A stretch of DNA of 64,000 nucleotides from Acinetobacter phage ABPH49. How positions within the stretch are numbered: the stretch's first letter is position 1; each line of letters begins with the position of its first letter. The notes beneath the pieces are model-generated. The model saw only the letters and a program-made list of their open reading frames with translations, was not told the origin of the DNA and made no database searches. The stretch lies in the sequence record MH533020.1. One strand, 5' to 3'. Positions 4,018-63,933 of the stretch are shown here, piece by piece. A program made the translations under genes and the position numbers.

Positions 4018-4475
4018 CAGGTGAAGGTTACTTCCTGCTGATCATGGGCGTACTTATCGCCCTGATTATGGTCATCTGGGCCGATGACACATTCTTCAAG
4101 CCAAAGCGTGAGACTCGCCCACCGGTGGAGAAGATCCTCGATCTGATAAAGTCAGAGGCTGGTTCCATAATCGTCCACAATGGTGACCACCTCGCTCCAG
4201 AGAGTGTCATGAAGAGGCAGTTCGTGGATTATACCATTGAAGACCGGATCACAAAGAAGCTGACATGGATCGGGAGGTTCCCTATGCATGACACCCCGGC
4301 AATCTCTGGGGATTTCAAGTGGTTCAATTCTTCGGAGGCTAAAAGGCTGTATCGGATCGTCAACAAGATTGGCACACGCCAAAGGAAAGAGAAAAACGAG
4401 AGGGCCTCAAAGGAACGCTATGAGCGTCATGAGGAACTTCGTAAGAAGGCCGAAGAGACGTATAAATACCGTTGA
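4014..4475 (+). CDS. hypothetical membrane protein (N-terminal TM helix)
   Basis: ORF track 153 aa; hydrophobic N-terminus LLIMGVLIALIMVIW. Confidence 0.55.
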   Translation: MTGEGYFLLIMGVLIALIMVIWADDTFFKPKRETRPPVEKILDLIKSEAGSIIVHNGDHLAPESVMKRQFVDYTIEDRITKKLTWIGRFPMHDTPAISGDFKWFNSSEAKRLYRIVNKIGTRQRKEKNERASKERYERHEELRKKAEETYKYR

Positions 4476-4501
4476 CATACTTCCCCGGGGTCATGTAATA
4501 T
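4472..4501 (+). promoter_or_regulatory. sigma70-like promoter (TTGACA-18-TAATAT)
   Basis: near-consensus -35/-10 hexamers immediately upstream of RBS GAGAGGAGAAAA and GTG at 4531. Confidence 0.55.
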
Positions 4502-4530
4502 GGCCCCACATTGAACGAGAGGAGAAAATA

Positions 4531-5319
4531 GTGGAATACATCAATTCGATGCGTAAGCGTGAGGATTTCTTGGTGTTGGGACTTGATCGAGTGATCAACT
4601 GGAACCTTACCGCTCGCGGATCGCATCAGTTCAGTGACGAAGATGTGGCTCGCCAAAAGAGCTTTGTTGCTGAGGAGCTGAAGGAAACAATCCAAGCATC
4701 CGTGGATAAAAACCGTAAAGAGATTATCGACGGGATCTGCGACATGTTTGTTGTTGCTACCTACTGGAACTTCCTCAAGGTAATGAAAGAGCAGAACGGC
4801 CGCATCAAACCAGAAGACCGGGTTTCTGGACATTTCGACGATGGTTTCAAAGAAATGGTTATCCGAGATGCGAGAATGGACACTCTGGACTACATGAAGC
4901 CGGGTAGTTATTGGTCAGATGAAGAGCCTGTCGAGCTTCTCACGTATCTTGAGAACTGCCTTAATGATGACCGTTCGCATACGTTTGTTGAGATTGTTGT
5001 CACCCTGATGGAAATTCTCGACTTCAATGCCGAATTGGCTCTGGGTCGGGTCCTTGATTCAAACGACAGCAAGATGCCGACTGTGTACGAACTGACAAAC
5101 GCACTTGAGCAAGGTGGTTCACAGTTTATGGATGAACCACGGTCAGTTGATGAGATGGTTGAATTTGAGGCTGACAACCTTAACAGGTACCACGCCGGTC
5201 GCTACTCTGGTATCACCGGCAACATCAATGTTCAGTTGAATCGGGTAGTTTTCAAAGACTCGAACAACAAGATCATGAAGCCTTGCACATTCGCTGATCC
5301 AGCCCTCAGCGACCTGTAA
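4531..5319 (+). CDS. hypothetical protein (GTG start)
   Basis: the N-terminal 80 aa of track ORF 4288..5319 are Arg-rich junk overlapping the upstream gene; a promoter and strong RBS precede GTG 4531. Confidence 0.45.
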   Translation: MEYINSMRKREDFLVLGLDRVINWNLTARGSHQFSDEDVARQKSFVAEELKETIQASVDKNRKEIIDGICDMFVVATYWNFLKVMKEQNGRIKPEDRVSGHFDDGFKEMVIRDARMDTLDYMKPGSYWSDEEPVELLTYLENCLNDDRSHTFVEIVVTLMEILDFNAELALGRVLDSNDSKMPTVYELTNALEQGGSQFMDEPRSVDEMVEFEADNLNRYHAGRYSGITGNINVQLNRVVFKDSNNKIMKPCTFADPALSDL

Positions 5320-24386: not shown

Positions 24387-25640
24387 TATCAAAAATATCT
24401 GGTTGGTGGCGCTGTCCGCGACATGCTGATGGGCAAGGAACCAAAAGACCGCGATTACGTGGTGGTTGGGTCTACCCATGAGGAGATGATCTCCCTTGGC
24501 TTCGGTATGCCATTTGGTGCGGCATTCCCTGTCTATCACCACCCTGAAACCAAGGAAGAGTATGCACTGGCACGTACAGAGCGCTCAACCGGTCCGGGTT
24601 ACCACGACTTCGAGACTTTGTTCTCGCCTGACGTAACTCTGGAACAGGACCTGCTTCGCCGCGACCTGACGATCAATGCGATCGCATACGACGAAGAGAC
24701 TGGTGAGTTCATCGATCCGCATGGCGGTGTTGAAGACATCAAAAATAAACAGCTGCGTCCGGTAAACCCAAAGGCATTCCTTGAGGATCCTCTGCGAATC
24801 TACCGACTGGCTCGTCTGTTTGCCCGGTACGGCGGTGAGTTCCAAATCGGTTGGCGCACCATGTGGCTGGTAACTCAGGCTGTCAAAGCCGGTGGCCTGA
24901 ACCACCTGCCAAAGGAAAGGAAATTCGCCGAGATCGAGAAGTGCTTCAAAGACGACTCTCGCAGCAACAAACCTTCCATGATGATCACCTTCTTGGCAGA
25001 TATCGGTGAACTGCCGGAGATTGCTGCTCTGGAAGGTGTCCCACAACCGGCGGAGCACCATCCTGAGGGTGACGCTTTCGTCCACACTATGTTGGTGATG
25101 GATGCCGCGTTCAATCTGGGGGCGAGCGCACAGGAGCTGTTCGCAGCCATGCTGCACGACGTGGGAAAGGCCGTGGTTTACGAAAAGTACGGCAAGCTTC
25201 ACGGTCACGAAGAGGCGGGTGTTCCGGTAGTGGAGCAAGTGTGCGACCGGTTTGGTGTACCACTCAGCTGGAGAAAGCTGGCGGTTGTGTGCACAGAGAA
25301 TCATGGCCGGGTCCACAAAATCCGCGACATGCGCCCAAAAAAGGTTCTGGCACTCCTTGAACGATTGAAAGCAGAGCAATCCTTTGATACGATGCTGTCA
25401 CTGTGTCTGGTTTGTCAGGCCGACGCATGGGGACGTGGCCCGGATCGTTATGGAAAGATGTACCTGCAAGGGGTGTACCTGATGAATGTTGCAGAAGCTC
25501 TGGCACTGGCACGGAAAGATCTGAAGATCAAAAACCGTGAAATTGCCTTGCAATGCAAAGGTAATCCGGGTAAGATTGCTGAAAGAGTTCGGGCAGAGAA
25601 ACTGTCCGTGGTAAAATCCGCGATACGGGAGATGAGTTGA
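24379..25640 (+). CDS. cca: CCA-adding tRNA nucleotidyltransferase with C-terminal HD domain; apparent 1-nt frameshift near 24390-24398
   Basis: MADIKNI in one frame, then YLVGGAVRDMLMG..DRDYVVVGST..EEYALARTER..HD domain in the next; colinear with E. coli Cca; the junction is an A5 run. Confidence 0.8.
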
Positions 25641-27841: not shown

Positions 27842-28053
27842 TGAAAACATGTGACAGCTGCACACACTGCATTGTCATGAAAGGGAAGCCGCACAATCTG
27901 TGCGGCCTTCACGATTATAGAGTCAAGGGGGTTCACACCTGCTTGAGCTTCAAAGGGAGAAAATATGAGCGAAGAGAACAAGGTCCCCGGAAAAGTAATC
28001 ATGAAGTGCTTGGCCGGATCGAAGGCATACGGAACATCTGTCCCGACGAGTGA
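27841..28053 (+). CDS. small Cys-rich protein (CxxC..HC)
   Basis: ORF track 70 aa; overlaps the downstream gene start by about 90 nt, so uncertain. Confidence 0.3.
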   Translation: MKTCDSCTHCIVMKGKPHNLCGLHDYRVKGVHTCLSFKGRKYERREQGPRKSNHEVLGRIEGIRNICPDE

Positions 28054-29041
28054 CACAGACATTCGTGGGATCTTTGTTGCCGAGCCAAAGTCTATCCGCA
28101 CACCGTGGTACACCGTTGGTGAATACACCATGCCAGACGAAGAAGATGGAAAACTTTATGAGCTGAACAAGTTCATGGAGCTGTTCGTCGATATGAACCC
28201 AAACATCATCGAACTTATGTTCGTCAGGGAGTCGGAGATCCTCTTCTCGACACCTGAGTATTGGGAACTCCGTCGACATGCTCACGCTCTGCTGTCGAGC
28301 AAGGTAGCCTTCAAGTTCTCCGGGTACGCGATGGCACAGCTGAAGCGCATCAAAGGCCACGACAAATGGATCAACAACCCACAGCCGGTAGAGGTCCCAA
28401 GCCAGCTGGAATTCTTCAGGATGGTGAATAACTACACTGAAGAGAGGATCTTGAAACATAAAGACTTCATGGACGTACTGATCAGGCTGGAGGGTCTTGC
28501 ATCACTGATCCCTCTGGGAAACTGGTTGTACGGTGTGGTGTTCGACTACCGAGAGTCGGTGCCTCCGATGTTCAACCCGGACGGGTCAATCAGGAAGATC
28601 GCTTATGAGGACATTCCTGACGACATCAAGAAACGCGCGCCGCTCTTCATCGTAAAATACTTGAGCGAGGACCACAAACTCGCAAAAGAAAAGCACAGGA
28701 ACTACTGGACGTGGAAGGAAAACCGCAATGCGGCCCGTCACGAACTGGAGGTTAAGTTCGGTTACGACACAAAACACGCCATGCACCTTGTGCGGCTTAT
28801 GCGTATGGCCCGTGAGATCCTCGAAACCGGAGAGGTCCATGTCTGGAGGCCTGACCACGAAGAGCTTGTTGGTATTCGAAACGGATCCCTTGATTACGAC
28901 ACCCTGATCGAGTGGGCCGAGATGACCGACGAGTATGTGCGGGGCGAGGCATACCAGAACACAAAACTTCCTAAAAAGGTTGACTTGAAGCTGGCATCTG
29001 ATATACTGCTCAAAGTTCAGGACATGGCTTGGAGGAGTTAA
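27965..29041 (+). CDS. Pol-beta superfamily nucleotidyltransferase of unknown specificity
   Basis: NTase core motif GS-x10-D-x-D (AGSKAYGTSVPTSDTDIRGIF) followed by a helical C-terminal region; RBS AAAGGGAGAAAAT; 358 aa. Confidence 0.6.
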   Translation: MSEENKVPGKVIMKCLAGSKAYGTSVPTSDTDIRGIFVAEPKSIRTPWYTVGEYTMPDEEDGKLYELNKFMELFVDMNPNIIELMFVRESEILFSTPEYWELRRHAHALLSSKVAFKFSGYAMAQLKRIKGHDKWINNPQPVEVPSQLEFFRMVNNYTEERILKHKDFMDVLIRLEGLASLIPLGNWLYGVVFDYRESVPPMFNPDGSIRKIAYEDIPDDIKKRAPLFIVKYLSEDHKLAKEKHRNYWTWKENRNAARHELEVKFGYDTKHAMHLVRLMRMAREILETGEVHVWRPDHEELVGIRNGSLDYDTLIEWAEMTDEYVRGEAYQNTKLPKKVDLKLASDILLKVQDMAWRS

Positions 29042-54074: not shown

Positions 54075-54335
54075 TCATCTTAATTGTGAATCTTTAGACC
54101 CGCGCCGGTTGTACGTTGACGCGATCGCCCGATCGTGGTCCTGTTGGCACGTGATGCAATACCGGCAACCCGGCACGGCCGCCCGGCGGCGCTCTGGTAT
54201 AGGCTCCCCGCAATCGTCACAGTGAGTTAATGATTCACCCCGGCGGATCTGGGACCGTGCAAAATCGATCGCGTTGTCTATTGTTGCTTGGATCATGTTT
54301 AGATGATCGTCAGCACCTGCAAAACCACTAGCCAT
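54075..54335 (-). CDS. DksA/TraR-family C4 zinc-finger protein
   Basis: CDDCGEPIPERRRAAVPGCRYCITCQ matches the TraR/DksA four-Cys finger; start uncertain (54335 or 54296). Confidence 0.55.
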   Translation of the reverse strand: MASGFAGADDHLNMIQATIDNAIDFARSQIRRGESLTHCDDCGEPIPERRRAAVPGCRYCITCQQDHDRAIASTYNRRGSKDSQLR

Positions 54336-54416
54336 AAAATAGAGTCCCTTGTAAAGTTTCGGACAGTCTACGCCAGCCACCGGAGCAAAGCAAGCAAAAA
54401 TATTTTAATTTTGTTG

Positions 54417-57505: not shown

Positions 57506-57727
57506 TCACCCATGCGATCCTTTTCGATTTTTGGCCTCCTTTTGGTTTATTGCAATAAACCATGCCACTGTAAATGCTATGCACGTTATGGATCTGGCGA
57601 TCTTGTCATTCTCGACACCGAACAGGTGGTTCAACAACATGTGGGTGCCGACACCAAATGCAGCCAGTAAGGCTCCACACAGGGCCATCCAAAACATCAC
57701 GACCAGAAACTGTAAGAAAATCTTCAT
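57506..57727 (-). CDS. membrane protein
   Basis: internal ATG with RBS GAAGGAG; two TM segments. Confidence 0.45.
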   Translation of the reverse strand: MKIFLQFLVVMFWMALCGALLAAFGVGTHMLLNHLFGVENDKIARSITCIAFTVAWFIAINQKEAKNRKGSHG

Positions 57728-57924
57728 TTCTTTATGAACTCCTTCTCTATCATATTCCCCAACAAGTAGCAAGTGACAAATACAGCAGCTATTCCAACGA
57801 ACTTAATGAACATCCACAAGTTATTGTTTATTAGCCATGCGGCACTGATCATCAAAGCTGCAACGATCATGATCACAATGATAGCACACAACCCATAAAA
57901 CATACGCTTTAGAAAATTAGACAT
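57724..57924 (-). CDS. membrane protein
   Basis: internal ATG with RBS TGGAGG; two TM segments. Confidence 0.45.
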   Translation of the reverse strand: MSNFLKRMFYGLCAIIVIMIVAALMISAAWLINNNLWMFIKFVGIAAVFVTCYLLGNMIEKEFIKK

Positions 57925-58112
57925 GAAAACCTCCAACATTTAGTAAAGATCCGTTATAATTAGGAGATCAATAATGACGACCGGTTAGGGAGTTATTATT
58001 GATCGAATAATTATCATGAGCGACCAGCGGGAGCGAGTGTTCTTATGTTAATACTTGTGTTCCTTTTTAAGAACACCACTCCACGCCGATCTTGTAGCTG
58101 TTGACTACAACA

Positions 58113-58493
58113 TCATCTCTCGAGACGCTTGGTGAACTTCCTCACCGCGTTGTCAACCTCCTCATCATCGGTACCGGCCTGCCAGTGGATAACGAGAAGT
58201 GATCCCAACTCTATCATCTCTCGGTCCACGTCGTCAAACCTTTCCGTCAACATTTGGATCAGATCCTTCTCACTGTCCTGAACGTCGTCTGGATAGGTGA
58301 AACTGTTGAACTTGACATACGTGTCTTCGAATCCATCACTGAACTTCCGCTCAATTTGGAAACCTTTCCCGTTGGCCGTGATGTTGTACACGATGCTTGA
58401 CTCTTCCCCTGAGTCTGGGATATCCGTTACTGTGAAGATCCCGTACATCCCTGTACGAACGGCGATTGCTTCGCCAGATACGTTTCTTGCCAT
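58113..58493 (-). CDS. hypothetical protein
   Basis: ORF track 126 aa; RBS AAGGAGAG. Confidence 0.5.
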   Translation of the reverse strand: MARNVSGEAIAVRTGMYGIFTVTDIPDSGEESSIVYNITANGKGFQIERKFSDGFEDTYVKFNSFTYPDDVQDSEKDLIQMLTERFDDVDREMIELGSLLVIHWQAGTDDEEVDNAVRKFTKRLER

Positions 58494-58502
58494 GAACTCT
58501 CC

Positions 58503-60269
58503 TTACATGAACTCATCGAAGTAGATCACCTCGCCAAATGGCGCTATCCACGGTGCCCGTCGCCCACCCAGCTTGACCCACAAGGTTTGGTTGTACTTGT
58601 GGTACCAATCTTTCTCGTTGGCTGGAGAGTGGAACTCGCAGTCAGTGAAGATTATCAGCTGATCAACCCGCTCGTCAAGCGTGTCGAGGTAATTAAACAC
58701 GCAGAACACGTCAGTCCCCCACGAAGTCTCGATCTTGTAATCGTTGATCTCGAAGGCATTCTCTTTCGTGTACCGGCATACCTTGCCCACGTGCGTTGAC
58801 CAGCAGAACAATACCACCTCGAACTCGTCGAACTGGTTCATCAGTCCACCGATCTCATTTCGAACATGGCGGAGAAGGCCGTCGTTAAATGACCCTGACA
58901 CGTCGAAACCAATGAATACCTTGATGATCTTCTTGGTATCCTTGCCCGGCAACACGACCGACTGGTTCGGCTTAATGTACCCACCTGACCGCAGTGAGCG
59001 AGTCAATGACCACGACCGACGATGTGGACGGCGATACGACACGTTTTCCTTACGCAGAGACATCAGGGTCTTACGGATCATCTCCATGTAGTTGATACAG
59101 GCTTGTTGGCCGTCTTCCAACCACTCGCGGGCCTCTTTTGGTGCAGCTGCCCCAGCGTTAATGATCGCAACCTCGCATGTGCGACGCATAACCGCCTGAT
59201 TTTCTTTCATCTCCTCTTCGGAAATCTCAGGCTGCTTTGATGTGTCTACGCCCAGTGCACTTTGGATATCCCCGAGGGAAGTCTTTCCGTCATCATCCTC
59301 TTCACCTTCCTGATCGGAGGATCCCTTTCCGCCGACGCCGGATCCTTCTCCCTCTTCTTCACCCTCGCCCTCTTCAGGTTCGCCTTCCCCGTCGCCAGAA
59401 TCTGCTTCGCCTGAGCCTTCCAAATCCCCCTCGTCGTCCTCTTCTTCCTCGGTATCATCGTCTTCATCCGGGGAAGACCCGCCACCTTCTTCTTCTTCGG
59501 GTTCCTCAGGTGGTGGAGTGCCAGAATCATCCTCTTCTCCCTCCGGCTTGTTGCCGGATCCGTCTTCATTGAGGTGGACGTCGTGGGACTTGTCTGGAAC
59601 ATCCTCGCCAGACTCTACACGCTTGTAGATGTCTCGGTAAATGTCTTCAGTCGCCCAGTTCAGGTACTTGAAGTCTACGCAGCACAGGGACAACCATCCG
59701 AACTCTTCACCACGGACAAAGACAGTTTTCTCTGCATCAGGGAACCACGCCTTGCCGAGGGCATCAGTTTTACTGTGCTCGATTACCAGACTTGTGTTGA
59801 TGCCGTGATCCGCAGCGATGTTGAACTCATCATTGTTGAACTCTTTACCACGGAAGATGTGTTCGTTCAGTACGTGGCGCACCTCATGCTCCATGACAAA
59901 GACAACCTCGCGAGGGGTCTTCTCTTTGAACCAAACATCCAGCTCCTCCTTCAGCCGCTGCCGCTTAGCGAAGGACATACCCAGACTGTCGATGCGCTTG
60001 TGGACCATCTCACGGCGCTTCTCTGACATCCCGGCGATGAACTCGACGGAGTAGTAGAAGTTGCGACCATCAGTGGCGCAGGTACTTAACCACTCTGTGG
60101 CCTCAACAACCGGCATGGATGCGAGCATGGTGCCGTAGAACGGGCGAACACGCTGAAGCTGTATGGATGCCATCTCCAACAGGCGGGTCGCCTTCTCGGA
60201 GTTTATACGCGCCTCTGCAAGCTCTTCTTGGGTCATGTGTTTTGGTGCAGTTAACAACTCGATAGACAT
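58503..60269 (-). CDS. CobT-like VWA-domain protein with an N-terminal HExxH metallopeptidase-like motif and a central poly-acidic tract
   Basis: HEVRHVLNEH (HExxH), C-terminal MIDAS-like DVSGS, about 110-aa D/E/G-rich linker; start at the second ATG (MSIELLTAP) with RBS TGGAGGAAAGA. Confidence 0.7.
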   Translation of the reverse strand: MSIELLTAPKHMTQEELAEARINSEKATRLLEMASIQLQRVRPFYGTMLASMPVVEATEWLSTCATDGRNFYYSVEFIAGMSEKRREMVHKRIDSLGMSFAKRQRLKEELDVWFKEKTPREVVFVMEHEVRHVLNEHIFRGKEFNNDEFNIAADHGINTSLVIEHSKTDALGKAWFPDAEKTVFVRGEEFGWLSLCCVDFKYLNWATEDIYRDIYKRVESGEDVPDKSHDVHLNEDGSGNKPEGEEDDSGTPPPEEPEEEEGGGSSPDEDDDTEEEEDDEGDLEGSGEADSGDGEGEPEEGEGEEEGEGSGVGGKGSSDQEGEEDDDGKTSLGDIQSALGVDTSKQPEISEEEMKENQAVMRRTCEVAIINAGAAAPKEAREWLEDGQQACINYMEMIRKTLMSLRKENVSYRRPHRRSWSLTRSLRSGGYIKPNQSVVLPGKDTKKIIKVFIGFDVSGSFNDGLLRHVRNEIGGLMNQFDEFEVVLFCWSTHVGKVCRYTKENAFEINDYKIETSWGTDVFCVFNYLDTLDERVDQLIIFTDCEFHSPANEKDWYHKYNQTLWVKLGGRRAPWIAPFGEVIYFDEFM

Positions 60270-60343
60270 TCTTTCCTCCAAAAGAAAATGGGCCATCTGT
60301 TAAGATGACCCATTGTTTCATGTGTTGATTACGAAGTCAACAC

Positions 60344-61588
60344 CTATTTGAATGCACTCGCCATCGATGCATATCGCGCCATGTACATCGAGACGATATT
60401 CGACAGGTCTTTCACTTTTCGCAGCAAGCTGGTGATCAGGTTATCGCCACGCAGTGGGTTCATGTCCAGAATCGCCTCTTCCTCTTTGGCAACCTGACGC
60501 ATCAGCTTCATGGAGACAGCAATGATCGAGTCCTTGGCTTCATGGATGTGGTTTTTCATCATGAATTTCAGGAAGTTAGCTACACGACTCAGGAACTCGT
60601 CGTTGCTGTACTTGTCGATATTCATCACATCTTTCTTCAGCTGGCGCAGGCAGTAATACACCAACACGGACACCAGATCGATCTCGTTAGGTGCCAGTTT
60701 GTTTTTGTGCTCTGTTACCTTCCCGCTGAGTACGTCCTCGGCGTCTGGAAGCTTCTTAGACCGCACGTGGTGGTCCATCAGGGCAGTTACCATGTCTGAA
60801 CCAACCAGACCTTGAATAGCCACTTCTGCCAACTCACGGTCCAGCTCTCCGGCATCATAATCATCGAGAACATTGCCGCAGTCTACCAGTTGGCGAGGTG
60901 ACGAGAAGCATGGCCCTTCGAAGCCTTGTGTACCAACCAGATGGCCGGTATAGATTTTGTCCGGGTTTTTCTTGATGAAGGTTACGACGCTCTGGTGCAC
61001 GTTCTGAGGAACAGCGAAGTCCTCGATCCACACAGTTGCGTTATAATCAACCTCAACAATCATCATTCGGTTAACCAACGGACCCAACAGCTCGGTTGTT
61101 GCACCGTTGTCGCCCGGGCGGTTACCAGCACCGATAAAGACGGACTTCGGGAAGGTGAACTCGCCGATACGGTGATCCAGCATGATCTGGTATGCCGCCT
61201 GTTGACACGCCGGGCTGGCGTTTGTCAGCTCGTCAAGGAAGACGAATCCGCGCCAGTTTGGGTCGGTAGGCCAGAAGCTTGGCGTTGCGTACACGGTTCT
61301 GACGATAGTCTTTCCGTTCTCGACAACCTCAACTGGGATCTGCACACCGGCCAAGTCGGCAGGTTCTTTATCCGACAGGCGGATATCACAGACTGACCCC
61401 CACGACGTACCGATGTAATCTGGGAACATCTCCGCCGCGAGTTGGGCAATCTTTTGGGATTTACCAAGACCGGCACCGCCGAAGAAGAAGATCGCCTTGC
61501 CAGTTTTGGCACAGTGTTTGATCAGGGGTTCCATCTGGCGCATGGTTATGCGACGAGTGAAGATGTTTTGCTTTTTGTACTGAGCCAC
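60344..61588 (-). CDS. MoxR/CobS-like AAA+ ATPase
   Basis: Walker A FFFGGAGLGKS, Walker B VFLDEL; GTG start after RBS AAGAGGA; promoter TTGACA-17-TATCAT upstream. Confidence 0.75.
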   Translation of the reverse strand: MAQYKKQNIFTRRITMRQMEPLIKHCAKTGKAIFFFGGAGLGKSQKIAQLAAEMFPDYIGTSWGSVCDIRLSDKEPADLAGVQIPVEVVENGKTIVRTVYATPSFWPTDPNWRGFVFLDELTNASPACQQAAYQIMLDHRIGEFTFPKSVFIGAGNRPGDNGATTELLGPLVNRMMIVEVDYNATVWIEDFAVPQNVHQSVVTFIKKNPDKIYTGHLVGTQGFEGPCFSSPRQLVDCGNVLDDYDAGELDRELAEVAIQGLVGSDMVTALMDHHVRSKKLPDAEDVLSGKVTEHKNKLAPNEIDLVSVLVYYCLRQLKKDVMNIDKYSNDEFLSRVANFLKFMMKNHIHEAKDSIIAVSMKLMRQVAKEEEAILDMNPLRGDNLITSLLRKVKDLSNIVSMYMARYASMASAFK

Positions 61589-61618
61589 AATATTTCCTCT
61601 TTCATGTGAATGAGGCCC

Positions 61619-61647
61619 CATGATAAGGACCTTTTGACAGGATGTCA
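61619..61647 (-). promoter_or_regulatory. sigma70-like promoter (TTGACA-17-TATCAT) for the CobS/CobT-like operon
   Basis: reverse complement of 61619-61647. Confidence 0.45.
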
Positions 61648-61866
61648 AATTACTTTTTCGTACCCTTCTGCATAGAGGTCAGTGACAAACCATGCAACCA
61701 ACTTGACTCCACCTTCAGAGAATGGATCCAGTGCCGACGGGTATGGGGTAGCCATAGTTCCATCTCGCCTTTCAAACCAATTTGTCAGGGTTTTGTTTGC
61801 GAAGTCGAATCGGTAAGTATGTCCCGAGATTGGTTCGCGAAAAGTCAAGGTATCATCTTGATTCAT
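61645..61866 (-). CDS. hypothetical protein
   Basis: ORF track 73 aa. Confidence 0.45.
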   Translation of the reverse strand: MNQDDTLTFREPISGHTYRFDFANKTLTNWFERRDGTMATPYPSALDPFSEGGVKLVAWFVTDLYAEGYEKVI

Positions 61867-62116: not shown

Positions 62117-62407
62117 TCATGTCCGATTCATCATAGAAGAATCCTTGGTGGCACCCATTTCCCCGGCAAACATGGGCTTTAGCTTTTTTCGTTGCCGGAT
62201 GATCCAGAATCCACTGTGACCACCTTTCCCAACCTCCTCGAGGTAACCTTTGGAGATCAGGCCTTCCGCCACCTTTCCGATTTTAACAGGTAACAGGCAG
62301 TCCCCGTCCCAATACTGGGTTTTTCGACGAGGACTGGCCTCTATCTCCCAGCCAAATACAACAGCAGCTTGGAGGAAACTTGCCTCGCGTTTGTTAATCT
62401 TGCTCAT
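62117..62407 (-). CDS. hypothetical protein
   Basis: internal ATG (MSKINKREASF...) overlapping the stop of the upstream HD gene; within track ORF 62117..62464. Confidence 0.4.
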   Translation of the reverse strand: MSKINKREASFLQAAVVFGWEIEASPRRKTQYWDGDCLLPVKIGKVAEGLISKGYLEEVGKGGHSGFWIIRQRKKLKPMFAGEMGATKDSSMMNRT

Positions 62408-62886
62408 CACTGACCCCCGTGAAGGATTTCGTGCAGCTGGCGGGCAGAGTCCAGACGAACCCACATCGCGTGGTATTTACGCATACGCAGCAGATCCTTG
62501 TCGGTAATGCCCTTCAGGCGGCGAATGTCGGTATTGTGGCGCAGGTCGGCCAGCTTAACCAGTGTTGCATTCGGGCTTTGCATCAGGCCATTGAGGTATT
62601 CCTCAGGCGTCTGACCTTCCTTCTTGGTCATGCGGTCGACAATGTCCACGACGGACTTGTCAAATCCGGCCTCGAGGAGGTATTCCAAAGTGACGTTGGT
62701 ATCTTCCACCAGATCGTGCATTACCGCAGCCGCTTTCACCAACGGGTCCTGCGACTTGACGTAGTGCATCACTTTCAAGCAGTGCAGGATGTATGGTTGA
62801 CCACCCTTGTCAAACTGGCCGTGGTGATGGGTAGCTGCCAGATAGATTGCTTTAGCCAGTTGTTCTTCTTTGCTCATCAGTTCCAT
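62407..62886 (-). CDS. HD-domain (p)ppGpp hydrolase-like protein (small alarmone hydrolase, MESH1/SpoT-hydrolase family)
   Basis: HHHGQ...(17)..MHDLVEDT..KLADLRHN motif series of the RelA/SpoT hydrolase domain; 159 aa, no synthetase domain. Confidence 0.7.
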   Translation of the reverse strand: MELMSKEEQLAKAIYLAATHHHGQFDKGGQPYILHCLKVMHYVKSQDPLVKAAAVMHDLVEDTNVTLEYLLEAGFDKSVVDIVDRMTKKEGQTPEEYLNGLMQSPNATLVKLADLRHNTDIRRLKGITDKDLLRMRKYHAMWVRLDSARQLHEILHGGQ

Positions 62887-62898
62887 TATCTTCTCCTA

Positions 62899-63846
62899 TT
62901 AAAACATCTGTGGTGGCGGGAAGTATCTAATTTCTTCGTACTTAGGATATGAAGGATATCCTAACTTCTCCCCCTCGTCAACAAAAAACTGACCATCAGG
63001 CCAAACCATCCGAACCAGTGGTGGGATCTCTGGAAGGTTTTTAATCTCCTCGTCGAGCATCTTTGCAACATCCTGCGTCCGGCAGAAGGAAGCACATACC
63101 CTGTCATTTGGGAAAATAACAGATTCATGCTCTGTGCCGATCTCCATCCACATGTGGGTGTCACGATTGGACCAGCTGGAATAGTCCCTGACATTGGACC
63201 CATAATCCGGCCGCGCCGGTGCATTGCCGAAGTTTATCCGCAAGCCACCCAGCTGCGTCCTAACCCTATTGACGCCATACCCGAATTCCTTCGTCACCAG
63301 AGAGATCTCTGTCCCGAGCGTCAGCTCTTTGTGTTCTTCGGTGAGAAGACTACTCACCGCACTTAAACCCTCTATGCAGTACCAGAGGGACCCAACTTTT
63401 GGGCCACTACCCTGTTGGGAATCGAGCTTATAGAAATGCTCGAAAAGCTCCTCCAGAACGGTTTTTATGGAGGTGTTGTAGAATTTAACCATCCCAGTCC
63501 CGCTGACTGTCGGCATCAGATTAGGGCTTGCATTGGTGGTGGTGTGGTATCGGATAGATGGAGCCTCACGATAGAGAACAAAGGAAACGTCATCCCTTTC
63601 CTGATGCTTTACTGAATAGGCAGCGGCGCTGCCCATATTGATCATCGCATCAAGAATGCGCTCATGGAACTGAACAGACCGGTAATTTGGTATTTTACGC
63701 AAGGCTGAGTAAAACAGTGACTCATTTTTGTCGTTGGTCTGAGTGTCCCAATTGCCATTCAACATCGCCTTCATCTCCCTTTCTGAGAAGTTTGGTGTGC
63801 GTATGGATCGTTGTCCGACCCACCACGGATTTTTGTCAATTTTCAT
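62899..63846 (-). CDS. hypothetical protein
   Basis: internal ATG (MKIDKNPWWVGQ...) with RBS GAAGGAGGG; within track ORF 62899..63882. Confidence 0.5.
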   Translation of the reverse strand: MKIDKNPWWVGQRSIRTPNFSEREMKAMLNGNWDTQTNDKNESLFYSALRKIPNYRSVQFHERILDAMINMGSAAAYSVKHQERDDVSFVLYREAPSIRYHTTTNASPNLMPTVSGTGMVKFYNTSIKTVLEELFEHFYKLDSQQGSGPKVGSLWYCIEGLSAVSSLLTEEHKELTLGTEISLVTKEFGYGVNRVRTQLGGLRINFGNAPARPDYGSNVRDYSSWSNRDTHMWMEIGTEHESVIFPNDRVCASFCRTQDVAKMLDEEIKNLPEIPPLVRMVWPDGQFFVDEGEKLGYPSYPKYEEIRYFPPPQMF

Positions 63847-63904
63847 ATTCCCTCCTTCATTAGATTCACATAAAGGTACCATGATATTTTTATGATTTCA
63901 AGTG

Positions 63905-63933
63905 TTGACTTCGGATAATTCGACATGTAATAT
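63905..63933 (+). promoter_or_regulatory. sigma70-like promoter (TTGACT-17-TAATAT) diverging from the minus-strand block
   Basis: consensus hexamers with 17-nt spacer; followed by RBS GAGGG and ATG 63966. Confidence 0.5.

Follow-up and report, generated by a model that had tools for sequence, protein, structure and literature searches.

What might a lytic bacteriophage gain from an enzyme of the alarmone hydrolase type? This question is raised by a gene at positions 62,407 to 62,886 of a 64,000-nucleotide stretch of DNA from Acinetobacter phage ABPH49 (sequence record MH533020.1; the whole stretch is referred to as the window), which encodes a stand-alone small alarmone hydrolase (SAH) of 159 amino acids (aa). 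An earlier note, made from the sequence alone, described the product as a SpoT/MESH1-like enzyme that could degrade (p)ppGpp or (p)ppApp and thereby blunt the stringent response of the host or defences of the toxic small alarmone synthetase (toxSAS)/CapRel type. The analysis reported here leads to a narrower reading, to which a probability of roughly 0.6 is given: the SAH would be an orphan, type-IV-antitoxin-like counter-defence enzyme that acts on adenosine 3'-pyrophosphates, namely (p)ppApp and probably pyrophosphorylated tRNA.

The gene and its product

The gene and its translation signal are located as follows:

62407..62886, minus strand: coding sequence (CDS) of the stand-alone SAH, Aph1-type, HD_4 domain, 159 aa (open reading frame (ORF), Pfam, PHROG and 7SMG match)
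62893..62897, minus strand: Shine-Dalgarno motif AGGAG, 6 nt 5' of the SAH ATG (read from the sequence)

The ORF was found exactly where the earlier note had placed it, and the AGGAG motif lies within the 12-nt spacer between the upstream gene's stop codon and the SAH start codon (TAA-TAGGAGAAGATA-ATG on the minus strand). Over 2.5 kb, the window shares 96.8% nucleotide identity with Serratia phage vB_SmaM-Kashira, a lytic Vequintavirinae myovirus of 144.5 kb, which confirms the proposed phage origin of the gene. The SAH is 100% identical to Kashira protein URC22816.1 (ON287374.1, 122542-123021). The two genes differ at 10 nucleotides; as all 10 differences are synonymous and none is non-synonymous, the frame is evidently translated and under purifying selection. 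The SAH gene is real, intact and phage-borne. The Kashira protein carries the name 'GTP pyrophosphokinase' in GenBank, which is wrong because the protein consists of the hydrolase domain only and contains no kinase domain; this label, corrected here, would mislead keyword searches.

An ORF of 177 aa on the opposite strand (62419..62952, plus strand) is longer than the SAH gene and was dismissed as a shadow ORF, because it matches no family and every substitution is silent in the minus-strand frame. A naive longest-ORF caller picks this antisense frame over the SAH gene.

Family, catalytic motifs and predicted fold

The HD_4 model of Pfam (PF13328), recommended as a check in the earlier note, matched the SAH at E = 2.8e-9, its 37.3 bits exceeding the gathering score of 27.2. 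Further matches were obtained with the Pfam HD model (26.9 bits against a threshold of 22) and with PHROG 990, 'metal-dependent phosphohydrolase' (E = 4.9e-57), so that the family match greatly exceeds what chance would give. The RelA/SpoT model TIGR00691 scored 57.9 bits. Since it was matched at positions 1-118 of 687 only, the SAH is concluded to be devoid of synthetase and regulatory domains, which sets it apart from Rel and SpoT and upholds its description as a stand-alone hydrolase. Likewise, no RelA_SpoT synthetase domain and no TGS or ACT regulatory domain was found by Pfam in the 159-aa protein, in which only HD_4 and HD were matched.

The motif HHHGQ occupies residues 20-24 and is followed by H57-D58-L-V-E61-D62 and A113-D-L-R-H-N118. 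The first two elements had been named correctly, whereas the third, previously given as 'ADRLHN', really reads ADLRHN, a transposition that leaves the catalytic D114 and N118 in place. All catalytic and metal-binding residues (H21, H35, H57-D58, E61-D62, D114 and N118) are present and align with those of Aph1 and Rel. They are invariant across an alignment of 58 sequences, so that the degeneration of the HD motif that the earlier note had considered did not appear. The codons of the two central motifs are:

62713..62718, minus strand: codons H57-D58 (cac gac), HD metal-binding/catalytic dyad; invariant in 58 homologs and matching the HD pair of Aph1 and of Rel in alignments
62701..62706, minus strand: codons E61-D62, ED motif of RelA/SpoT-homolog hydrolases; invariant in the alignments

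The SAH shares its superfamily, the HD/ED catalytic core and a predicted metal dependence with MESH1, SpoT and Rel. Its closest relative of solved structure is Aph1 of Bacteroides caccae (PDB 7SMG), which was matched over residues 9-145 with 94 bits (E = 6.3e-26) and is 35-38% identical over the full length. Matches to solved Rel (46 bits) and MESH1 (33-36 bits) were weaker, with E values of about 1e-10 to 1e-11 for Rel/SpoT hydrolase domains and about 1e-7 for MESH1. An AlphaFold2 (AF2) model built from 58 homologs reached a predicted local distance difference test score (pLDDT) of 92.7 and a predicted template modelling score of 0.88. When this model was compared with the PDB by Foldseek, the four best matches were the four Aph1 chains of 7SMG, with template modelling (TM) scores, normalised to the target, of 0.89-0.91 and root-mean-square deviations of 1.4-1.7 Å. 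MESH1, Rel, SpoT, PaSAH and RelH reached TM scores of at most about 0.7, mostly about 0.6, at 3-7 Å (MESH1, 0.63-0.65; about 4 Å for MESH1, Rel and SpoT).

The SAH and Aph1 are both compact proteins with one HD domain and about 150 residues (159 and 149 aa), whereas MESH1-type SAHs are about 20 residues longer (178-180 aa in MESH1), and Aph1 has two fewer helices than (p)ppGpp hydrolases (PMC10083569). The compact fold of the Aph family was recognised in the SAH model by superposition of the whole fold. The family itself is defined by homology to a C-terminal segment that contains no HD motif (Aph1 Y90-E143) together with six signature residues (PMC10083569). This segment is conserved in the SAH: residues 90-141 of Aph1, searched alone, match SAH residues 104-138 with 49% identity (E = 2e-8). 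Compared with Aph1, the last helix of the SAH is extended at the C-terminus by about 15 residues. As sequence and predicted fold are both closest to Aph1, the protein is placed, with little room for doubt, among the Aph1-type SAHs of the RelA/SpoT-homolog superfamily, and the label SpoT/MESH1-like is given up.

Residues predicted to determine substrate specificity

The six signature residues of Aph1 are D24, R96, D116, R119, K133 and Y134 (PMC10083569). Five of the six are kept in the SAH, in which D26, D120, R123, K137 and Y138 correspond to D24, D116, R119, K133 and Y134, respectively. Among 58 relatives, no variation is seen at D26, R123 and Y138, and conservation at D120 and K137 is at least 90%. 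The codons concerned are:

62809..62811, minus strand: codon D26 (Aph1 D24), specificity determinant; Arg in Rel/SpoT-type enzymes (FDKGG in the SAH, IDKAG in Aph1, YRKSG in Rel)
62518..62529, minus strand: codons D120-I-R-R123 (Aph1 D116...R119; NTDIRRL in the SAH, NMDITRL in Aph1, N--MRTL in Rel)
62473..62478, minus strand: codons K137-Y138 (Aph1 K133-Y134), assigned by alignment; Tyr contacts the pyrophosphate (role from PMC10083569)

D120 lies within an insertion of two residues (T119-D120) relative to Rel, both of which are missing from B. subtilis Rel. D26 stands where Rel has a guanine-stacking Arg, and R123 where Rel has a guanine-bonding Thr. Overall, the guanine-recognising set of TtRel (R43, R44, S45 and T153) is not kept, its positions being taken by D26, K27, G28 and R123. 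In Aph1, (p)ppGpp hydrolysis is not detectable, and the double exchange D24R + R119A confers ppGpp activity (PMC10083569); the SAH therefore keeps the equivalents of the two residues that enforce (p)ppApp over (p)ppGpp. Among Aph homologs tested, 12 of 12 hydrolyse ppApp efficiently and two of the 12 hydrolyse ppGpp modestly (PMC10083569). Judged from these residues, the SAH probably prefers adenosine over guanosine substrates. It is predicted to remove the 3'-pyrophosphate from adenosine nucleotides and would probably also remove it from tRNA ends.

These residues bear directly on the alternative that the SAH is a SpoT/MESH1-type (p)ppGpp hydrolase that lowers ppGpp and thereby prevents or reverses the host stringent response in favour of phage production. 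Membership of the same HD_4 superfamily speaks for it, as do homologs named 'guanosine-3',5'-bis(diphosphate) 3'-pyrophosphohydrolase', the modest ppGpp activity of the two Aph homologs mentioned above and a report that phages can be restricted by the stringent response (bioRxiv 10.64898/2026.01.27.700999). It is opposed by the replacement of all four TtRel positions, by the absence of detectable ppGpp activity from wild-type Aph1, which carries the same residues, and by a sequence and fold much nearer Aph1 than MESH1, Rel or SpoT. Because Aph1 is nearest and the guanine-recognising residues are replaced, the (p)ppGpp half of the earlier proposal is disfavoured and its (p)ppApp half favoured, as far as residues can tell. 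A SpoT/MESH1-type role is considered unlikely, and so is any direct blunting of the ppGpp stringent response by the SAH.

An adenine-specific pocket would fit many adenosine 3'-esters, which opens a different alternative, namely that the true substrate is another adenosine 3'-phospho compound such as NADPH, 3'-phosphoadenosine 5'-phosphosulfate or a 3'-modified defence signal, making the SAH a signal-degrading anti-defence enzyme of new specificity. RelA/SpoT-homolog hydrolases show catalytic versatility, an example being MESH1, an NADPH phosphatase that also binds 3'-phosphoadenosine 5'-phosphosulfate, and XccSAH has been called metabolically promiscuous (PMC9765508). No positive evidence points to such a compound, efficient ppApp hydrolysis was common to all 12 Aph enzymes (PMC10083569), and the toxSAS rescue by a phage ortholog, described below, is explained without a new substrate. 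This alternative is regarded as very unlikely.

Homologs and published activities

The SAH has 3449 homologs among database proteins at E<=1e-10, and homologs also turn up in 330 phage records and 428 plasmid records. Homologs of about 52-56% identity occur in other Vequintavirinae, including PVP-SE1, 4MG, BIS47 and CR3. Streptococcus prophages encode proteins with 39-46% identity, which may or may not be the MuF-Apk2-linked Aph1 immunity proteins that occur in S. pneumoniae prophages (PMC12226406).

The most informative homolog is gp220 of Salmonella phage PVP-SE1, a stand-alone hydrolase from a phage of the same subfamily (Vequintavirinae) that is 53% identical to the SAH (82/156, E = 3e-57), 47% of the residues being different. 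The SAH of PVP-SE1, assigned to the PbcSpo subfamily, neutralised five of five toxSAS in E. coli, namely CapRel, PhRel, PhRel2, FaRel2 and FaRel (PMC7229694). The tested protein was taken to be gp220 as this is the only homolog in that genome, and the ABPH49 SAH is tentatively grouped with PbcSpo through its 53% full-length identity to this sole homolog. For the SAH studied here, toxSAS neutralisation in trans is a prediction from the PVP-SE1 ortholog. Jimmy et al. (2020) proposed that incoming phages bypass alarmone-based abortive infection with such hydrolases (PMC7229694). Four of the five toxSAS were later shown not to make alarmones. SAHs reverse the pyrophosphorylation of the tRNA CCA end (bioRxiv 10.1101/2021.04.30.441581; PMC11559606); tRNA de-pyrophosphorylation was established biochemically for ATfaRel and MESH1 (bioRxiv 10.1101/2021.04.30.441581) and reported for PaSpo of phage SSU5 (PMC11559606). 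Adenine-specific hydrolysis at the terminal adenosine of tRNA (A76) would explain how an enzyme with an active site of the Aph type can counteract tRNA-targeting toxSAS. The toxSAS/CapRel half of the counter-defence idea in the earlier note is therefore backed by the PVP-SE1 ortholog, while its stringent-response half is disfavoured.

The same ortholog weighs on a further alternative, in which the SAH clears (p)ppApp of non-defence origin, either basal (p)ppApp of the host or that made by type VI secretion system effectors of the Tas1/Apk1 type, and thus guards the ATP pool and purine synthesis. This explanation shares the biochemical prediction of the preferred one. It draws on the protection by Aph1 against Tas1, on the many Aph homologs found in contexts linked neither to toxins nor to defence (both PMC10083569), and on the presence of other nucleotide-pool genes in the phage (ribonucleotide reductase and nicotinamide adenine dinucleotide (NAD) salvage). 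However, the hydrolases are slower than Apk1 by orders of magnitude and rescue is partial only, interbacterial attack would be a weak selective force during a short lytic cycle, and tRNA-targeting toxSAS, which make no (p)ppApp, are efficiently counteracted by the PVP-SE1 ortholog (PMC7229694; bioRxiv 10.1101/2021.04.30.441581). Little credence is given to it.

Proposed mechanism and points that weigh against it

In the preferred explanation, counter-defence on adenosine 3'-pyrophosphates, the SAH would be a stand-alone, Mn2+-dependent HD-domain 3'-pyrophosphohydrolase of the Aph1-type clade (PbcSpo of Jimmy et al.), made by a lytic Vequintavirinae phage from a leftward operon with its beginning at a divergent intergenic region. 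The metal centre formed by H21, H35, H57-D58 and D114, together with the E61-D62 motif, would hydrolyse the 3'-pyrophosphate ester, while D26, D120 and R123 would form a base pocket that takes adenine and shuts out guanine and K137-Y138 would grip the pyrophosphate. The enzyme is predicted to convert pApp, ppApp and pppApp to AMP, ADP and ATP, and the 3'-pyrophosphorylated terminal adenosine of tRNA is probably a further substrate. In this way, the SAH could undo the products of both (p)ppApp makers (for example FaRel) and tRNA-CCA pyrophosphorylators (for example CapRel, PhRel and FaRel2), so that translation, aminoacylation and ATP pools would survive the firing of host toxSAS and the triggering of abortive infection. 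Counter-defence against toxSAS would, on balance, be the role of the SAH during infection.

Several points weigh against this explanation. The sixth signature residue, R96 of Aph1, is not kept and is replaced by G100, Gly being the consensus of the phage clade; R96 is the sole signature residue distant from the active site, and in the accessible part of the source no specificity effect is reported for the R96A variant (PMC10083569). The specificity prediction is probabilistic, because two of 12 Aph homologs modestly hydrolyse ppGpp, and it is drawn from residues and family membership, the activity of the SAH itself being a predicted one. For the PVP-SE1 enzyme and for Aph1, tRNA de-pyrophosphorylation is inferred from the rescue of tRNA-targeting toxSAS. 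The timing of SAH expression is suggested by gene position only. Finally, evidence for counter-defence by phage SAHs comes entirely from co-expression, and in the literature searched, no publication was found in which an SAH lets its phage plate more efficiently on toxSAS-carrying hosts in a real infection.

Genomic context of the SAH gene

The SAH gene is the second gene of a block that runs leftward from a divergent intergenic region of 120 bp. The earlier note had placed it first, a position that belongs to an ORFan of 314 aa. The elements around the gene are:

62899..63846, minus strand: ORFan, 314 aa, first gene of the leftward block; fast-evolving and probably co-transcribed with the SAH gene
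62117..62407, minus strand: small downstream gene, 96 aa, PHROG 24592; start ATG and SAH stop codon overlap (TGATG)
63881..63908, minus strand: promoter-like site TCAACA-16-TATCAT (9/12), which could drive the ORFan-SAH block; same site in Kashira
63905..63933, plus strand: promoter-like site in the same divergent region (9/12 sigma-70 match)

The TGATG overlap implies translational coupling of the SAH gene and the small downstream gene. Compared with Kashira, the latter shows a 1-nt deletion in a G run near 62196, by which its product is shortened from 117 to 96 aa and loses a Cys-rich, CxxCxGxG-like C-terminus; the deletion may reflect a genuine frameshift or an error of sequencing. A strong divergent promoter, as claimed at 63.9 kb in the earlier note, was not demonstrated. 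The sites reach 9/12 matches and their number in the divergent region (four) is not significantly above that in shuffled sequences (2.2 +/- 1.2). In PVP-SE1, a promoter is annotated in the equivalent intergenic region.

The order of divergent region, gene of about 320 aa, SAH gene, small gene and, later, MoxR-like ATPase and DUF2201 VWA/metallopeptidase is common to Kashira, PVP-SE1 and three metagenomic contigs. The gene for gp220 thus occupies the same slot, second after the divergent region and upstream of the MoxR-like ATPase. A comparison of the flanks revealed no homology between the genes that border the SAH gene here and those in PVP-SE1, and PVP-SE1 gp219, gp221 and gp222 gave no informative Pfam match. 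Because the flanks of the Kashira clade and of PVP-SE1 are non-homologous, the SAH gene is taken to be a conserved gene set amid variable accessory genes. Likewise, in related contigs the SAH is kept at 76-81% identity while the flanks diverge. Some records label a feature adjoining the SAH match as 'thymidylate kinase', which is a record label only.

Further downstream, a MoxR-like AAA ATPase (434-aa ORF, PHROG 1297) adjoins a putative VWA-like metallopeptidase of 597 aa with DUF2201_N/DUF2201 domains (58503-61648, minus strand). The 597-aa protein has a long acidic linker rich in E, D and G, and its PHROG label 'HNH endonuclease' looks doubtful. The pair is kept downstream of the SAH gene in Kashira and in the metagenomic relatives, and the MoxR ATPase was present in the stretch of PVP-SE1 examined.

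The ORFan had no Pfam or PHROG match. An exhaustive HMMER search among 1.84 billion proteins returned four representatives as relatives, whereas a word-indexed search found Kashira only. The relatives examined (two, and Kashira) come from Kashira-like phage contigs and lie in the same slot directly upstream of the SAH gene; in PVP-SE1-like phages, a protein of comparable size without homology to the ORFan is encoded at this place. The ORFan contains a conserved C-terminal motif, LVRMVWPDGxFFVD. Its AF2 model, built from five sequences, reached a pLDDT of 55.5, and Foldseek found no match in the PDB better than E = 0.08, with TM scores below 0.2. Its identity is 92% where that of the SAH is 100% (Kashira) and 29-34% where that of the SAH is 76-81% (contigs). 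A comparable pattern is known from Apk2 modules, in which identities of 35-38% for IapK stand beside 43-57% for Aph1 (PMC12226406). By this match, the ORFan could be a toxin-binding partner. Precedents for pairing an inhibitor with a hydrolase are Apk2-IapK-Aph1 (PMC12226406) and FaRel with AT2faRel and ATfaRel (PMC7229694). By analogy, the ORFan and the SAH might form a two-gene counter-defence cassette, in which the ORFan, as a target-specific binding inhibitor of a host toxSAS or another defence, would supply a 'specific' blocker beside the 'universal', product-degrading SAH. This cassette is a speculation that we hold to be distinctly unlikely.

Search for a partner toxin and other phage genes

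Aph1, the closest characterised relative, serves as an immunity protein in Bacteroides and in Streptococcus prophages (PMC10083569; PMC12226406), so that the SAH might protect the phage against a (p)ppApp synthetase toxin of its own, as Aph1 does against MuF-fused Apk2; a 'FluMu protein' annotated in Kashira could be counted in favour of this. A Pfam sweep of the 88 ORFs of the window, in which 18 families were matched, revealed no RelA_SpoT synthetase domain. The sweep was extended to 50 other CDSs of Kashira with a length of 140 aa or more, apart from the origin-spanning DNA polymerase CDS and an end-cut terminase, and here none was found among the best 25 of 31 families, the other six being weak (E = 2.6e-5 to 1e-3). 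No MuF-Apk2 or IapK-like arrangement was found beside the SAH gene, whose neighbours are the ORFan and the PHROG 24592 protein. The 'FluMu protein' was rejected as a MuF toxin, being a Mu-type portal without a toxin domain. Moreover, the phage is a lytic Vequintavirinae myovirus, and MuF genes are neighbours of just 0.4% of Aph homologs (PMC10083569). As neither a partner synthetase nor a MuF toxin was found in the sweeps, self-immunity is rejected as largely refuted and extremely improbable.

The sweeps revealed several other genes of interest, which in the window are:

24423-25640, plus strand: CCA-adding-type nucleotidyltransferase (PolyA_pol head + HD; Pfam sweep)
27965-29041, plus strand: RlaP 'RNA repair pathway' nucleotidyltransferase (Pfam sweep)
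54075-54380, minus strand: TraR/DksA-type C4 zinc finger (CDDCGEPIP...CRYCITC; zf-dskA_traR, E = 1.2e-13)
4288-5319, plus strand: 343-aa protein with MazG-like PRA-PH domain (Pfam sweep)

No tRNA genes were found in the window, the tRNA cluster of Kashira being located outside it. Beyond the region covered by the window, Kashira carries 20 tRNA genes, an RNA ligase, HAD_SAK_2, an Rv2179c-like 3' exoribonuclease and an NAD-salvage pair. Taken together, the nucleotidyltransferases of the window and the tRNA genes, RNA ligase, HAD_SAK_2 protein and exoribonuclease of Kashira suggest that the phage is well equipped for tRNA/RNA repair, and a tRNA 3'-end pyrophosphatase could work alongside such a toolkit. 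A NADAR-domain protein (E = 8.9e-26) was also found among the 88 window ORFs; the family includes phage orphan antitoxins that reverse ADP-ribosylation by DarT1. The NADAR protein and the MazG-like protein are further candidates for enzymatic counter-defence genes. This inventory of RNA-maintenance and anti-defence genes is compatible with a counter-defence role of the SAH and is no proof of it.

The zinc finger and the MazG-like protein can also be read as hints at the regulatory axis on which a ppGpp-lowering hydrolase would act, and in this respect they favour that alternative. RNA polymerase is the target of TraR-like proteins, which substitute there for ppGpp/DksA, and the phage may therefore steer stringent-type transcription independently of the SAH.

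The NAD-salvage genes of Kashira encode a nicotinamide phosphoribosyltransferase and a ribose-phosphate pyrophosphokinase (57616-60330), just outside the start of the window. Such NAD+ salvage pairs have been proposed to counteract defences that deplete NAD.

Comparison with known antitoxin systems

The SAH differs from Aph1 in its setting, as it is an orphan in a lytic myovirus, has no MuF-Apk2 toxin or IapK as a neighbour and hence is not a cognate immunity gene. Aph1-type hydrolases are characterised, among other features, as homotetramers (PMC10083569). A functional parallel may be drawn, by description, with ATfaRel of Cellulomonas marina, the type IV antitoxin of FaRel, and with PaSpo of Salmonella phage SSU5. 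Both degrade the toxin product without binding the toxin, as the SAH is expected to do by analogy, and both are credited with cross-protection against all toxSAS classes and with the removal of the tRNA 3'-pyrophosphate. Unlike the SAH, ATfaRel belongs to a three-gene toxin-antitoxin operon that includes the toxin, and PaSpo represents another SAH subfamily.

A parallel in biological logic is AdfN, a phage NADAR orphan antitoxin directed against DarTG1, which is likewise a toxin-less enzymatic antitoxin of a lytic phage that reverses the modification set by the toxin, regardless of how the toxin is built (bioRxiv 10.1101/2024.07.11.602962). AdfN has an unrelated fold and chemistry (it is an ADP-ribosylglycohydrolase acting on DNA), and its role was demonstrated in infection, whereas that of the SAH is inferred. 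AdfN is, to the knowledge of its authors, the first lytic-phage orphan antitoxin for counter-defence (bioRxiv 10.1101/2024.07.11.602962). The SAH may represent an analogous, still unproven case.

Conclusions

Published work already covers the family with its structure and specificity determinants as well as a phage ortholog that neutralises toxSAS, and an identical protein is present in GenBank. With 330 phage records and a family characterised both structurally and functionally, the presence of the SAH is otherwise expected, and the ORFan is the only unexplained element of the locus. What the gene adds is a concrete, testable candidate for counter-defence by an orphan antitoxin of a lytic phage of Serratia: it is predicted to be specific for adenosine 3'-pyrophosphates, D26 and R123 being the switch residues. 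In addition, the SAH bridges two bodies of literature that name what is apparently the same clade, one as the toxSAS-rescuing PbcSpo SAHs and the other as the Aph1-type (p)ppApp hydrolases. If Aph-type enzymes also de-pyrophosphorylate tRNA A76, this would explain why tRNA-targeting toxSAS can be counteracted by an enzyme specific for adenine.

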